From IMG/VR virus record IMGVR_UViG_3300009703_001822: a stretch of 64,000 bases of DNA; one strand, 5' to 3'. Made by a program: the position numbers and the translations under genes. The notes below the pieces were generated by a model. It did not search any database and was not told the DNA's origin. It worked only from the letters and a program-made list of their open reading frames with translations. This stretch comes from a virus. Numbering within the stretch: the stretch's first letter is position 1; the number at the start of each line of letters is the position of its first letter. Shown here in pieces: positions 48,859-56,198 of this stretch.

Positions 48859-50124
48859 ATGTATCTTTCAGAAGAACTACAAAAGAAGTGGCAACCAGTT
48901 CTTGAGCACGGTGACTTACCTGAGATTCAGGACCCGTACAAAAAAGCTGTTACCACAGTAGTACTCGAAAACCAAGAGAAGGCTCTTCGTGAAGAAAAAG
49001 AAGCTCTTTTCGAGGCTACACATGCTAACCAAACAGGTGCAGGCGTTGATAACTATGATCCTATTTTAATATCATTAGTTAGACGTGCTTTACCTAACCT
49101 TATGGCTTACGATGTTTGCGGAGTACAACCAATGTCTGGACCAACAGGTCTAATCTTCGCTATGAAGTCACACTATACTAGTCAAACTGGTACAGAGGCT
49201 TTATTTAACGAAGCAGACACTGATTTCTCAGGTGCAGGAACACATGCTGGAGCTAATCCAGTAGATGGAACTTACACTACAGGAACAGGTGTATCTACAA
49301 GCACTGCAGAAGGCTTTGGAGACAGCACTACACTAAATGAAATGGCATTCTCGATTGAGAAGACAACTGTTACTGCTAAATCAAGAGCATTGAAAGCAGA
49401 ATATACAGTTGAACTAGCTCAAGACTTGAAAGCTGTTCATGGTTTAGATGCAGAATCCGAGCTAAGTAATATCCTTTCACAGGAAATACTTGCAGAGATC
49501 AACCGTGAGGTAATTAGAACTATTTACAAAGTGGCAAAAACAGGCTCAGCCTCAACTGCTACAGCTGGAACATTTGATTTAGATGTTGACAGTAATGGTA
49601 GATGGTCAGTAGAAAGATTTAAAGGTCTTTTATTCAATATCGAGCGTGACGCTAATGTTATAGCACAAGACACCAGGCGTGGAAAAGGTAACTTCATCAT
49701 CTGTTCATCAGATGTTGCAAGTGCTCTTTCAATGTCAGGCGTACTTGACTATGCACCAGCATTATCAACTAACTTAAATGTTGATGACACAGGTAATACA
49801 TTCGCTGGTGTATTAAACGGTCGTTATAGAGTTTACATAGACCCTTATTCAGCTAACACAGGAGCTGCTAGTCAGTTCTATGTAGTTGGTTATAAAGGAA
49901 CTAGCGCATATGACGCAGGTCTTTTCTACTGTCCGTATGTACCGCTCCAAATGGTTAGGGCTATTGACCCTAGCACATTCCAACCTAAGATTGGTTTCAA
50001 AACTAGGTATGGCATGATCGCTAATCCATTTGTAATGCAGTCAGACGGAACTACAGATGCAGACACATTTACTGCAGACCGTAACCAGTACTACAGATCA
50101 GTCAAAGTTACAAACTTAATGTAA
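48859..50124 (+). CDS. g23: Major capsid protein gp23
   Basis: KWQPVL, GVQPMSGPTGLIFAM, KSRALKAEYT.ELAQDLKAVHG, QPKIGFKTRYG. Confidence 0.97.
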   Translation: MYLSEELQKKWQPVLEHGDLPEIQDPYKKAVTTVVLENQEKALREEKEALFEATHANQTGAGVDNYDPILISLVRRALPNLMAYDVCGVQPMSGPTGLIFAMKSHYTSQTGTEALFNEADTDFSGAGTHAGANPVDGTYTTGTGVSTSTAEGFGDSTTLNEMAFSIEKTTVTAKSRALKAEYTVELAQDLKAVHGLDAESELSNILSQEILAEINREVIRTIYKVAKTGSASTATAGTFDLDVDSNGRWSVERFKGLLFNIERDANVIAQDTRRGKGNFIICSSDVASALSMSGVLDYAPALSTNLNVDDTGNTFAGVLNGRYRVYIDPYSANTGAASQFYVVGYKGTSAYDAGLFYCPYVPLQMVRAIDPSTFQPKIGFKTRYGMIANPFVMQSDGTTDADTFTADRNQYYRSVKVTNLM

Positions 50125-50153: not shown

Positions 50154-50184
50154 AAAAGGGCTTCAGATTTGGAGCCCTTTTTTT
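50154..50184 (+). terminator. Rho-independent terminator after g23
   Basis: AAAAGGGCTTC-agattt-GGAGCCCTTTT followed by a T run. Confidence 0.85.
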
Positions 50185-50204: not shown

Positions 50205-50212
50205 TATAAATA
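50205..50212 (+). promoter_or_regulatory. Late promoter TATAAATA ahead of the riboswitch
   Basis: Exact consensus 5 nt before the ATCGTTC start of the RNA motif. Confidence 0.75.
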
Positions 50213-50217
50213 ATTAT

Positions 50218-50334
50218 ATCGTTCATGTGTAAGTTCATTAACATACACACGGAAGTAGACCTGAAAACCTCTCACATTCGTGGGGTTAGCTAGTAGGCAG
50301 TCAGCCGAACGAGACCGAAAGTCGAAGGAACGCA
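50218..50334 (+). ncRNA. glnA-type (glutamine-I) riboswitch with expanded P3
   Basis: ATCGTTCA / P2 TGTGTAAGTT-CATT-AACATACACA / CGGAAGTAGAC ... GTCGAAGGAACGCA; P1 CGTTC:GAACG and E-loop strands match the glnA motif. Confidence 0.8.
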
Positions 50335-50368
50335 TTCTTTTAACCGTAAAAAAGTATAAGGAGGCGAT

Positions 50369-50527
50369 ATGACTTATAGAGGCATAACATACACCAAAGA
50401 AACTTTGATTACAGAAGCGAGGAAAGCTCGTGCTGGCATTTACAGAGGTGTAAAACATGGTCCTATGAAGACTGAGTCCAAGGGTATGCAACATGGCATA
50501 TACCGTGGCATCAAATGGTCTAATTAA
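50369..50527 (+). CDS. 52-aa peptide with three YRG motifs (DUF4278-like); not in ORF track
   Basis: TAAGGAGG SD; MTYRGITYTKETLITEARKARAGIYRGVKHGPMKTESKGMQHGIYRGIKWSN. Confidence 0.85.
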   Translation: MTYRGITYTKETLITEARKARAGIYRGVKHGPMKTESKGMQHGIYRGIKWSN

Positions 50528-50538
50528 TTAGGAACAGG

Positions 50539-50569
50539 AAAAGGGGCGATCTCGAGTCGCCCCTTTTTT
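50539..50569 (+). terminator. Rho-independent terminator after the YRG peptide
   Basis: AAAAGGGGCGA-tctcgag-TCGCCCCTTTTTT. Confidence 0.88.
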
Positions 50570-50586
50570 ATCACATAAATACAGAT

Positions 50587-51621
50587 ATGAAGTTCCATAT
50601 ATTATATAATAATGAAAAGATTATACCAAACATAAGTCAGAACATAAGAAAATGGCCAGTTAGTTATGATATAGATAATGCAGAAGTGGTTCTTACATTT
50701 AAACTTAATACATACTCTGTTACAAAAAAATTTGCTAATCTATGGGAAACTACTCACTCTAATGCACTAAGACAAAATGGAGGTAGACAGTTTGAACAAC
50801 AGCAGCAGGTGTTTACACGACCTACACCTGAAAGAATCATGCGTTCACGAGAATTATATAATAAAACATTACAAGAAATTATTCCTTTTGTAAGTAGACA
50901 AAGTGCAGCAATAATTGTAGGTGGAGATTTAAATGTAGAAATATCTACAAAGCCTTATTTAGAAAAGTTTAATAGGGCTCATGAATTGTTTGAAAAGGAA
51001 TGTGCTAGTGTTATGCCTACAGGTAATAAGTATGAAGGTTCATGGGAAAAATGGCAAATAATACATAGAAATAGATTACAGTTATTGAATTCCATAATAC
51101 ATTTTAATGAAGAAGAAATAAGACCTAATCCTTCGCCTAAATATACAACTATAATATCTACTTCATATAACAGCGATCATATGGGAGACAATAACGATTC
51201 ATTTTTAATGGCAGATCATTTTTATAGGGACATGGTACCTTCAGATTATAGAGCCTTTTCCTTTGGTAAAGCAGTGCCTGGTACTTTATATTTAGACTTT
51301 GCTACTTTAGGTAAATGTTTAACAGAAATAGCAGGTACTAATGATGTAAGATTGTTAAGAACAGAAGGACCTTCTCAACAAAAAACAATATGGCCTTGGG
51401 TAAGATATTCCTGGGAGCCACCTCAACCACTTAGAGTTAAACAATATAATAAATGGATAATAAAAAACAAAGTAGGAAAGATACTAGACTTATCTAACCC
51501 TATGTACAAACCTGGTTTACACCCTTTAGGTGTATGCACATCTCATGATTTTACAAATGCTAAACAATTTGAGGACTTTATACAAGATAGAGCTGTAGTA
51601 GGAACAGTACTAGAAAGGTAA
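50587..51621 (+). CDS. Hypothetical protein
   Basis: 344-aa ORF preceded by the late-like box CATAAATA (50574-50581). Confidence 0.7.
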   Translation: MKFHILYNNEKIIPNISQNIRKWPVSYDIDNAEVVLTFKLNTYSVTKKFANLWETTHSNALRQNGGRQFEQQQQVFTRPTPERIMRSRELYNKTLQEIIPFVSRQSAAIIVGGDLNVEISTKPYLEKFNRAHELFEKECASVMPTGNKYEGSWEKWQIIHRNRLQLLNSIIHFNEEEIRPNPSPKYTTIISTSYNSDHMGDNNDSFLMADHFYRDMVPSDYRAFSFGKAVPGTLYLDFATLGKCLTEIAGTNDVRLLRTEGPSQQKTIWPWVRYSWEPPQPLRVKQYNKWIIKNKVGKILDLSNPMYKPGLHPLGVCTSHDFTNAKQFEDFIQDRAVVGTVLER

Positions 51622-51681: not shown

Positions 51682-52116
51682 ATGGCATATAGTAAAAAGG
51701 TAGTAGATAGATTTAATGATGTATTGAATAATCCACAACAGCATGGGGTAGGACGATTTGATCCTAATGACCCTAATGTTGCTACAGGAATGACTGGAGC
51801 ACCAGCATGTGGAGATGTTATGAAACTAGATCTAAAAGTAAATCCTGATACAGATGTTATAGAAGATGTTAAGTTTAAAACATATGGTTGTGGTTCAGCT
51901 ATTGCTAGTTCAACTATGTTCGTTGAAATGCTTAAAGGTATTACAATGAAACAAGCCTTAGAAATTAAGGATAAAGATATAGCAGCAGCACTTGAATTAC
52001 CACCTATTAAGTTACATTGCTCTGTACTAGCAGAAGATAGTATTAAAAGAGCATTGAAAGATTGGGACGAAAAGAAAGCACACCGTGAACACAATGGAGC
52101 GCCAGTTGCAACCTAG
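51682..52116 (+). CDS. iscU: Fe-S cluster scaffold IscU
   Basis: GAPACGDVMKL, FKTYGCGSAIASS, LPPIKLHCSVLAED; three Cys and the His conserved. Confidence 0.95.
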   Translation: MAYSKKVVDRFNDVLNNPQQHGVGRFDPNDPNVATGMTGAPACGDVMKLDLKVNPDTDVIEDVKFKTYGCGSAIASSTMFVEMLKGITMKQALEIKDKDIAAALELPPIKLHCSVLAEDSIKRALKDWDEKKAHREHNGAPVAT

Positions 52117-52480
52117 TACTTTTGATCCTAACAATCTTATTGCTACATCGAGACCGCCTTTGGTTGACTTTTCACCTGAGGCTCTCGAACAAGTCTTAGA
52201 TAGGTTAGATAAGAAAGGACACAAAGGAATATTCTTTGGATTAACAGGCGGTGGCTGTGCAGGTTTTTCGTATGTATTTAATTATGCTGATGGACCAAAT
52301 CAGGAAAGTGATATAGAAATAGACTTTGGTAAATTTAAAGTCTGGATGGATGTAATGTCAGAAATGTACTTAACAGGTACGGTTATATCATGGAAAGTAG
52401 AAGGTTTGAATGAGGGTTTTGAATTCGTAAATCCTGCAGAACAATCTGCTTGTGGTTGTGGTGTAAGCGTATCATTTTAG
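52094..52480 (+). CDS. iscA: A-type Fe-S carrier IscA/HesB family
   Basis: GGGCAGFSY, F.NP...ACGCG.S. Confidence 0.9.
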   Translation: MERQLQPSTFDPNNLIATSRPPLVDFSPEALEQVLDRLDKKGHKGIFFGLTGGGCAGFSYVFNYADGPNQESDIEIDFGKFKVWMDVMSEMYLTGTVISWKVEGLNEGFEFVNPAEQSACGCGVSVSF

Positions 52481-52489
52481 GAGTATATT

Positions 52490-52648
52490 ATGGCAAAATC
52501 ATGGAGTGGAAAACTCACACATACTGGTGTTAAAAAATCGACATCACAAGGACAAGGCGGTAGAGGAAGAAAAGTAAAAATTTCTACTTCTACGATGAAT
52601 AAAAATAAAAAACGATCGTATAAGAGATATAGAGGACAAGGTAAATGA
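52490..52648 (+). CDS. 52-aa highly basic peptide ending YRGQGK (not in ORF track)
   Basis: AGGAG SD; MAKSWSGKLTHTGVKKSTSQGQGGRGRKVKISTSTMNKNKKRSYKRYRGQGK; ATGA overlap with g3. Confidence 0.8.
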   Translation: MAKSWSGKLTHTGVKKSTSQGQGGRGRKVKISTSTMNKNKKRSYKRYRGQGK

Positions 52649-55592: not shown

Positions 55593-56198
55593 ATGGCAAA
55601 AAGACGTGACCCAAATTCGGCTCACTATATAAACAACAAGGAGTTCCTTGTGGCAATGACTGAATATAGGGAGTTAAGATTAGAAGCAGAAGAGAGTGGT
55701 GAGGATAGACCACGAGTAACCAACTATATAGGAGAGTGCTTTGTTAAAATAGCAAATCACTTAGCTTATAAATCCAATTTCGTAAATTATACATTTAGAG
55801 ATGAAATGATTTTAGACGGTATTGAAAATTGTCTTACATATATGGACAACTTTGATCCAGCAAAATCTAAAAATCCATTTGCATACTTTACACAAATTAC
55901 ATACTACGCATTCATTAGGCGTATTCAAAAAGAAAAAAGACAAATGGAGACTAAGTTCAAATATATTAAGAGCTTAGACATAGATCAAATTTTGGAACAG
56001 AGTGCAGACGGAAGTGAACACTCTAATGATTACCTTAGTTATATGAGAGGTATCATTGAACAGGCAGAGGCAGATAACGCAGCTGCTGATAAAGCTAATG
56101 AAGGTAAGAAAGTTCATAAGCGTAGACCAAAATACTTAGACGAAAAAATTAAGGCAGAAGAGGCAGAAAAGGCCAAAAAAGGTAAACAAGACTCTTGA
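55593..56198 (+). CDS. g55: Late-transcription sigma factor gp55
   Basis: HYINNKEF, YIGECF.KIA.HL, NF.NYT, NPFAYFTQI.YYAF.RRI.KEK. Confidence 0.95.
   Translation: MAKRRDPNSAHYINNKEFLVAMTEYRELRLEAEESGEDRPRVTNYIGECFVKIANHLAYKSNFVNYTFRDEMILDGIENCLTYMDNFDPAKSKNPFAYFTQITYYAFIRRIQKEKRQMETKFKYIKSLDIDQILEQSADGSEHSNDYLSYMRGIIEQAEADNAAADKANEGKKVHKRRPKYLDEKIKAEEAEKAKKGKQDS

Follow-up and report, generated by a model that had tools for sequence, protein, structure and literature searches.

In cyanobacteria, a glutamine-I (glnA) aptamer followed by a DUF4278 gene is the rule, and for the gifB/IF17 leader of Synechocystis PCC 6803 the ON logic of such a glutamine-I switch has been shown (PMC6212724). Glutamine switches in ocean phages are already known as well: one paper describes them in Melnitz, Mosig and pelagimyophage-like contigs (PMC9004378), another in cyanophage S-CREM1 (PMC9964418). 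A glutamine aptamer with an unannotated YRG peptide is also the theme of the downstream-peptide (glutamine-II, RF01704) RNAs, which include one in the phage record NC_006882; a likeness to PII and a decoy role were proposed for their ORFs in 2010, AmtB not being proposed as a target (PMC2864571 supplement). According to the same source, DUF4278/YRG peptides are among the most expressed Prochlorococcus genes. They are the commonest glutamine-riboswitch product in the ocean.

The window, by which we mean the whole stretch of 64,000 nucleotides that was analysed, comes from a T4-like phage whose gp23 is 71% identical to that of Melnitz, 69% to that of HTVC008M and 67% to that of Mosig, all phages of marine heterotrophs. 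Its plus strand carries a unit (50205-50569) made of a late promoter, a glutamine-I aptamer, a ribosome site and a DUF4278 ORF, with flanking terminators. Upstream lies the major capsid gene g23 (48859-50124, stop at 50124; Pfam Gp23, E 4e-143), closed by an intrinsic terminator consisting of an A tract, a GC stem and a U tract (50154-50184, -16.7 kcal/mol). The T4-type late promoter TATAAATA (50205-50212) ends 5 nt before the aptamer (50218-50336), which is followed by the Shine-Dalgarno sequence TAAGGAGG (50357-50364), the 52-aa ORF (50369-50527) and a second intrinsic terminator (50539-50569; hairpin and U tract, -21.1 kcal/mol). The latter is absent from the list of a simple scanner and was found by folding; in a rough test, a hairpin with a U tract also followed 47 of 79 homologous ORFs. 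Every one of these elements lies where the preliminary description had placed it, and its view of a self-contained unit behind a T4-type late promoter is supported, the promoter starting at 50205 and both terminators folding well. Searching the unit against isolate phages by blastn gave no match, and tblastn with the peptide gave a single weak one (E 4). Against the nearest relative, 8 codons differ synonymously and 8 non-synonymously, numbers too low to carry weight.

The aptamer was recognized by cmscan as RF01739 with 46.3 bits (gathering score 35, E 6e-7) and is the sole Rfam match at gathering level within the 64 kb, which upholds the glutamine-I identity first proposed for it. The Downstream-peptide model (RF01704), suggested alongside, gave no match even at E values up to 10, so that the aptamer class differs from that of the downstream-peptide RNAs. 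P1 (50220-50224/50328-50332; CGUUC/GAACG), the junction (50250-50257; CGGAAGUA), the E-loop partner GAAG and, in the 3' core (50324-50333), the conserved C after P1 all agree with the RF01739 consensus. P2 (50226-50249) keeps its pairs in 83 of 83 copies at four positions, with four pair types, and P3 is present but longer by a 58-nt module that the RF01739 model lacks. Since the folding energy of the whole leader is no better than that of shuffled sequences (z -0.05), the structural support rests on covariation.

Folding suggested how the leader may act. In the free RNA starting at 50218 (the assumed start), the end of the P1 3' strand with the conserved C and the following bases (50331-50339) pairs with the ribosome site (50359-50367) when the aptamer is not formed, and thus reads as an anti-Shine-Dalgarno element. 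Forcing P1 raised the unpaired probability over AAGGA from 0.01-0.11 to 0.13-0.64, and over the GCG that follows it from <0.05 to about 0.9. A similar helix is possible in 11 of 11 short-leader copies, each time with modest strength (p 0.007-0.13). On the basis of these folds and by analogy with the tested gifB switch, we infer a translational ON switch: at low glutamine, the P1 3' strand and the bases after it would pair with the ribosome site and keep translation off, and glutamine would lock P1 and the conserved C behind it, thus freeing the ribosome site and turning translation on. The unit resembles the gifB/IF17 leader in its aptamer core, its downstream DUF4278 gene and its predicted ON logic, but it differs in having a 58-nt module in P3, three YRG repeats without the inhibitory region, a phage late promoter, and cellular relatives in SAR86. 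In long-leader copies, a further conserved element, the third, follows the aptamer ahead of the start codon; it consists of a purine-rich motif, a hairpin and a conserved stretch (e.g. L376:7220-7280, L406:1654-1715, L290, L299). Its two motifs occur in 52 and 40 of 69 copies, and it is absent in the window.

What the unit has in common with the switches of Melnitz, Mosig, the pelagimyophage contigs and S-CREM1 is an RF01739 aptamer borne by marine T4-like phages, some of which infect heterotrophs. In Melnitz and Mosig, however, plain short-P3 aptamers lie elsewhere in the genome and precede peptides without YRG: a ribosome site and a 32-aa ORF follow the aptamer in Melnitz (MZ577097, 46398-46446), and a 51-aa basic ORF follows it in Mosig (MT647606, 92197-92250). 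The paper on these phages describes no peptide (PMC9004378). This arrangement suggests that both switches control downstream peptides and not, as proposed there for Melnitz, an upstream tmRNA.

The dots in the motif of the preliminary description conceal the 58-nt insert, a nested RNA module that it overlooked, as it did the chromosomal SAR86 copies treated below. Indeed, cmscan had to pass over 58 nt of the extended P3 (50258-50323) in order to match the aptamer. The module (about 58 nt) contains, in this order, GAAAAC-CUC, hairpin P4 (50272-50283), GG-x-AGC, a second AGUA/GAA loop, which surrounds hairpin P5 (50296-50306) and resembles the loop of the outer aptamer, and GAG-ACCGA. Addition of the SAR86 copies brought the number of distinct module sequences to 83, all nested in a glutamine aptamer among the matches listed; they combine an invariant core with two variable, covarying hairpins. 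The first pairs of P4 and P5 are kept in 99% of cells, as compared with 67% and 56% with shuffled partners, a contrast that is inflated by relatedness, yet several pair types occur at each position. The invariance of the core is partly built into the search patterns, yet some 15 copies found without those patterns keep the same core. Judged by this comparison of copies, the module is conserved and structured, and we regard it as a candidate second aptamer or folding aid that would tune the glutamine switch or sense a second ligand. It has no match in Rfam, and no credible stand-alone copy was present among the matches listed from viral, metagenome and genome scans, which included two loose matches without context. 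We found no paper on it in a largely open-access literature, and a review of tandem riboswitches mentions, in its accessible part, glutamine doublets and triplets but no nested form (PMC9481103). As an orphan candidate for an aptamer, the module is well conserved, and its 83 sequences are at hand for screening ligands.

Pattern scans that were blind to the insert separated three P3 classes among the 246 aptamers listed: at least 142 with a short P3, at least 55 with this insert and at least 45 with a second nested type. Among the matches listed, every insert-bearing copy with a called ORF (53 of 53) stands before a peptide that has two or three YRG-type repeats, as against 95 of 107 short-P3 copies with an ORF that precede peptides without such repeats. 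We considered the possibility that the module is a circularly permuted glycine aptamer (RF00504). The segment order fits, but the segment scores (13-22) were half those of true aptamers (35-43; p 0.007-0.46, the comparison being post hoc) and the last G of GAAG in the glycine pocket is not kept; the idea was not adopted. The second nested type looks like a circularly permuted glutamine-II aptamer inside a glutamine-I P3 and stands before two-YRG peptides in at least 45 sequences (e.g. L039, L078, L092, L111, L115, L448, L528 and 38 more). On one phage contig, the nested cassette is accompanied by an alphaproteobacterial-type permuted tmRNA (L186:1848-2164).

The ORF behind this leader (50369-50527) encodes, as had been noticed initially, a 52-aa peptide with three YRG motifs, which start at residues 3, 25 and 45. 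The HMM comparison proposed at the time gave 26.3 bits for Pfam DUF4278 (PF14105; cut-off 25.3), all 49 aligned relatives match DUF4278 at E 0.01, and the first match in Atlas is DUF4278 (0.91). YRG is invariant in all three repeats across these 49 relatives, which are otherwise 33-52% identical (one 85%); the repeats are spaced by 20-22 residues, and two-repeat forms make up 7 of 53 among the matches listed. The peptide is basic and Lys-rich, with Arg-Gly and Tyr repeats. AlphaFold predicted three hairpins with RG at each turn (pLDDT 77) and no fixed overall fold (pTM 0.27), and a Foldseek search of this model against the PDB gave no match. As compared with the downstream-peptide ORFs, most of which have a single YRGxxY, there are three repeats here, mostly without the second Tyr. 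The Tyr that GlnD modifies in PII (Tyr51) is kept in only 24 of 221 repeats; the corresponding residues in the window are Y, H and W, and the first repeat keeps YRGxxY.

By its score, the peptide belongs to DUF4278; it is neither IF17 nor a PII protein. It matches no other Pfam or NCBIfam family and lacks the inhibitory C-terminal region of IF17. This bears on the idea that it would be an IF17-like inhibitor of host glutamine synthetase, turned on by glutamine. It is true that IF17 contains DUF4278 and that gifB is under the control of the same aptamer (PMC6212724), and another brake on glutamine synthetase would be useful in SAR86, where 151 genomes gave no GlnE match. However, DUF4278 makes up the N-terminal portion of IF17, without which inhibition still occurs (PMC6316151, PMC6212724), and the inhibitory part is absent here. 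Moreover, the majority of the SAR86 genomes searched have no synthetase but a short GlnII-like one, mostly beside ntrB, a full type-I match being found in 6 of 151. We therefore think such an inhibitor quite improbable. In the accessible part of the PirA paper, no homology to DUF4278 or IF17 is given, and a link to PirA was dropped.

The promoter box recurs at related loci. In 16 of 53 viral or metagenome copies, the aptamer follows TATAAATA at a distance of 11-15 nt, whereas about 0.0008 such boxes are expected per locus. The box is found within 60 nt of the aptamer in 26 of the 53, as compared with 0 of 30 SAR86 copies; this difference argues that the phages put the unit under a promoter of their own. 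TATAAATA occurs 16 times on the plus strand of the window, for the most part ahead of genes, and a sigma-like gene (55593-56198), identified by a weak sigma match and synteny, lies in the position of gp55; these two observations support the late-promoter reading. By analogy with T4 spacing, transcription probably starts about 13 nt behind the box at approximately 50218, the first base of the aptamer, and the late sigma factor would produce an RNA of about 350 nt beginning with the aptamer. The slot after g23 is the commonest one (12 of 52 other viral or metagenome copies, with gp23 there 59-72% identical), but the tie to virion assembly that had been proposed is weak: the cassette also lies after gp43, gp32, gp55, nrdB and phoH, and 12 of the 53 viral or metagenome copies lack TAAATA within 60 nt. 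In four metatranscriptomes selected on g23, coverage extends over g23 and hardly over the cassette, but their contigs come from mixed relatives and have no bearing on expression. Many viral short-P3 glutamine aptamers also lie 13-14 nt behind TATAAATA, before other conserved families of basic peptides of 45-65 aa without YRG (L010, L016, L031, L033, L047, L100, L105, L116, L118).

If the late promoter and the frequent slot after g23 were the clue to function, the peptide might bind RNA, ribosomes, membranes or the virion and couple late phage output, for instance lysis timing, to glutamine, its likeness to PII being due to chance. Its Lys-rich composition with Arg-Gly and Tyr repeats would suit such a role, and lysis timing has been speculated upon for the Melnitz switch (PMC9004378). 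Yet SAR86 chromosomes encode the same peptide amid genes for housekeeping and nitrogen functions and without a late promoter in front of it (0 of 30), indicating that its function is first of all cellular, and we hold this explanation to be improbable.

Within the SAR86 order, 48 of 151 genomes matched the cassette pattern (about 44 after dropping four without the hairpin), and among 401 Gammaproteobacteria genomes from across the class only two, both SAR86, did. Among the matches listed from a genome scan, three uncultured SAR86 genomes have the entire cassette amid housekeeping genes. RF01739 has already been recorded in SAR86 (PMC12379486); on the triple-YRG gene of SAR86 we found no paper in a largely open-access literature. 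An unrooted tree built from cassette DNA unites the SAR86 copies in one clade (97/97) and places that of the window among short-leader viral copies. A recent pick-up from a sequenced SAR86 was rejected because of this position of the window copy outside the SAR86 clade. The unit is best explained as a portable nitrogen-control cassette common to SAR86 bacteria and marine T4-like phages.

A clue to the host came from a gene located 1.1 kb downstream, encoding IscU (51682-52116, plus strand; Pfam and similarity scores). The phage protein scores 175-191 bits against many SAR86 IscUs, and for 150 other Pseudomonadota the score does not exceed 164. It shares with the SAR86 proteins an N-terminal insertion of 6 residues that is absent from nine other proteobacterial IscUs. 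Because the phage IscU is of the SAR86 type, SAR86 is probably the host, although the position of the window copy outside the SAR86 clade keeps this from being proof. The preliminary description had seen nothing pointing to a cyanobacterium, and a non-cyanobacterial host agrees with both the nearest gp23 relatives (Melnitz, HTVC008M and Mosig) and the IscU type. The iscU gene forms part of a segment (51682-52480) that also contains an iscA-like gene, and close IscU relatives (63-80% identity) are found near the cassette in other phages.

What the peptide may do is suggested by PII. In E. coli, the T-loop tips of GlnK insert into the pore exits of AmtB, where Arg47 blocks conduction (PMC4274968; PDB 2ns1, 2nuu). 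The peptide would be a flexible chain of three beta-hairpins whose YRG tips copy the tip of the PII/GlnK T-loop; in the manner of Arg47 of GlnK, its three Arg tips would occupy the pore exits on the cytoplasmic side of the trimeric host AmtB, three in number, and stop ammonium flow when glutamine is high. The likeness to the GlnK-AmtB complex concerns YRG at a hairpin tip, the three copies and an action expected under nitrogen excess. It is a claim about working alike, not about PII membership: GlnK is a folded trimer under the control of ADP/ATP, 2-oxoglutarate and uridylylation, whereas the peptide is one short chain controlled at the level of its synthesis, without a PII body or the PII core fold of about 112 aa. 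We put forward this glutamine-gated, three-headed T-loop mimic shutting ammonium uptake via AmtB as a tentative reading, with a probability falling somewhat short of even. Of the targets initially listed, Amt would be the most likely one and inactivation of glutamine synthetase the least likely, the inhibitory part of IF17 being missing.

The spacing of the three repeats (20-22 residues) matches a trimeric target, and the SAR86 GlnK T-loops, including that of the GlnK encoded beside the cassette, carry the same YRG, a motif of three residues. In SAR86, the cassette directly adjoins amtB in two arrangements. Cassette and PII gene were both located in 12 genomes; no more than 2.3 kb separates them in 7 of these, and no more than 5.1 kb in 8. 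It is found in 35 of 77 SAR86 genomes without a GlnD match and in 9 of 74 with one. This split and the neighbourhood follow lineages and are weak arguments; with all SAR86 copies in a single clade, they amount to one or a few events. Several observations speak against a plug of AmtB: two SAR86 contexts (era-recO, G012) are far from amt, forms with two repeats occur, free hairpins have no PII body, Arg47 is dispensable for the binding of GlnK to AmtB (PMC4274968), two places after YRG the repeat has Lys where PII has Glu, and the likeness to PII amounts to three residues, profile comparison by hhalign giving a probability of 3.7% over 15 columns.

Instead of acting on Amt, the peptide might imitate PII towards a soluble protein that binds the T-loop, such as NtrB, GlnD or N-acetylglutamate kinase; this glutamine-gated decoy would reset the host nitrogen regulon. 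A PII-related decoy was what was proposed for the YRGxxY peptides (Weinberg 2010; PMC2864571 additional file 1), the first repeat in the window keeps this motif, and an NtrB-like kinase gene adjoins that of glutamine synthetase in SAR86. The rarity of the modifiable Tyr fits a plug better than a GlnD decoy, however, and most cassette-bearing SAR86 genomes have no GlnD match. Three repeats also suit a trimer better than dimers such as NtrB, GlnD or N-acetylglutamate kinase. A decoy of this type consequently appears unlikely to us.

Contact with AmtB was assessed by complex prediction. Two chains of a SAR86 AmtB, taken as a stand-in for the host protein, together with the window peptide scored 0.43 (runs 0.42-0.51), as compared with 0.00 for the best of 3 controls; the runs shared at least 44% of contacts, with a partner pLDDT of at least 58. 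Of 80 solved pairs 58 pass the mark, and of 110 mismatched pairs 2; with a score of 0.60 or under, however, only 7 of the 80 pass it, as do both mismatches. At 0.43, a pass is wrong in more cases than it is right, except where the contact was likely beforehand. The prediction took two AmtB chains, not the trimer, and returned no interface, and its pass may reflect memorized structures because GlnK-AmtB complexes have been solved. It gives weak support to a contact between peptide and AmtB. AmtB as a candidate target of these peptides and this prediction are the new elements of the analysis; no paper proposing AmtB as the target of DUF4278/YRG proteins was found in a largely open-access literature.

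The same structural evidence (AlphaFold model and complex prediction) would also fit a peptide that binds AmtB and competes with GlnK without blocking, keeping the channel open to feed virion synthesis, and a phage gains from more nitrogen. Yet every repeat has the blocking Arg, the peptide would be made when glutamine is already high, and the host carries the same gene; channel opening is very improbable on these grounds. Closure of AmtB by the peptide, as preferred here, would bring a glutamine input to the control of Amt without GlnD, and would let the phage keep this control once host genes are silenced. If true, it explains how glutamine reaches transport control in streamlined bacteria without GlnD, and means that phages carry an ammonium valve under their own promoter.

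The complete picture, in which a two-in-one riboswitch with a nested second aptamer gates a single-chain, three-headed T-loop copy controlling the ammonium channel in SAR86 and T4-like phages, is rather unlikely to hold in all its parts. If it does, it gives the DUF4278 proteins a function and replaces GlnD as glutamine sensor, and a phage protein gates host ammonium uptake. To call the combination surprising in itself would be an overstatement. Its parts are real, but both phage glutamine riboswitches and the pairing of glnA aptamer and DUF4278 were already published, and should plug and module both fail, a further phage glutamine riboswitch of the published kind remains.

Other arrangements of glutamine aptamers and nitrogen genes were seen in passing. 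On marine metagenome contigs, tandem short glutamine aptamers directly precede amt or type-I glnA (L568, L582, L589, L590, L602, L604, L619, L624, L648; L562, L634), and the T-loop of the adjacent PII lacks YRG (L562, L567, L634, L654). One SAR86 genome (G003; L663:1500-1700) has a plain glutamine-I aptamer (68.5 bits) before a gene reading like glutamate synthase gltB. Among the SAR86 genomes searched, with L702:1401-2381 as the locus noted, GlnD was present in about half, and one group has no PII match at all.

Further genes of the window lie downstream of the unit. A 344-aa ORF (50587-51621) stands behind a CATAAATA box (50574-50581); it has no Pfam or NCBIfam match and is absent from related loci. 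A basic 52-aa ORF (52490-52648) without a Pfam match has copies of 76-79% identity in L201, L323 and L327. Finally, the segment 56233-62876 contains queE, folE, queD-like and glycosyltransferase-like genes, as read from ORF starts only, and is probably a 7-deazaguanine DNA-modification cluster.
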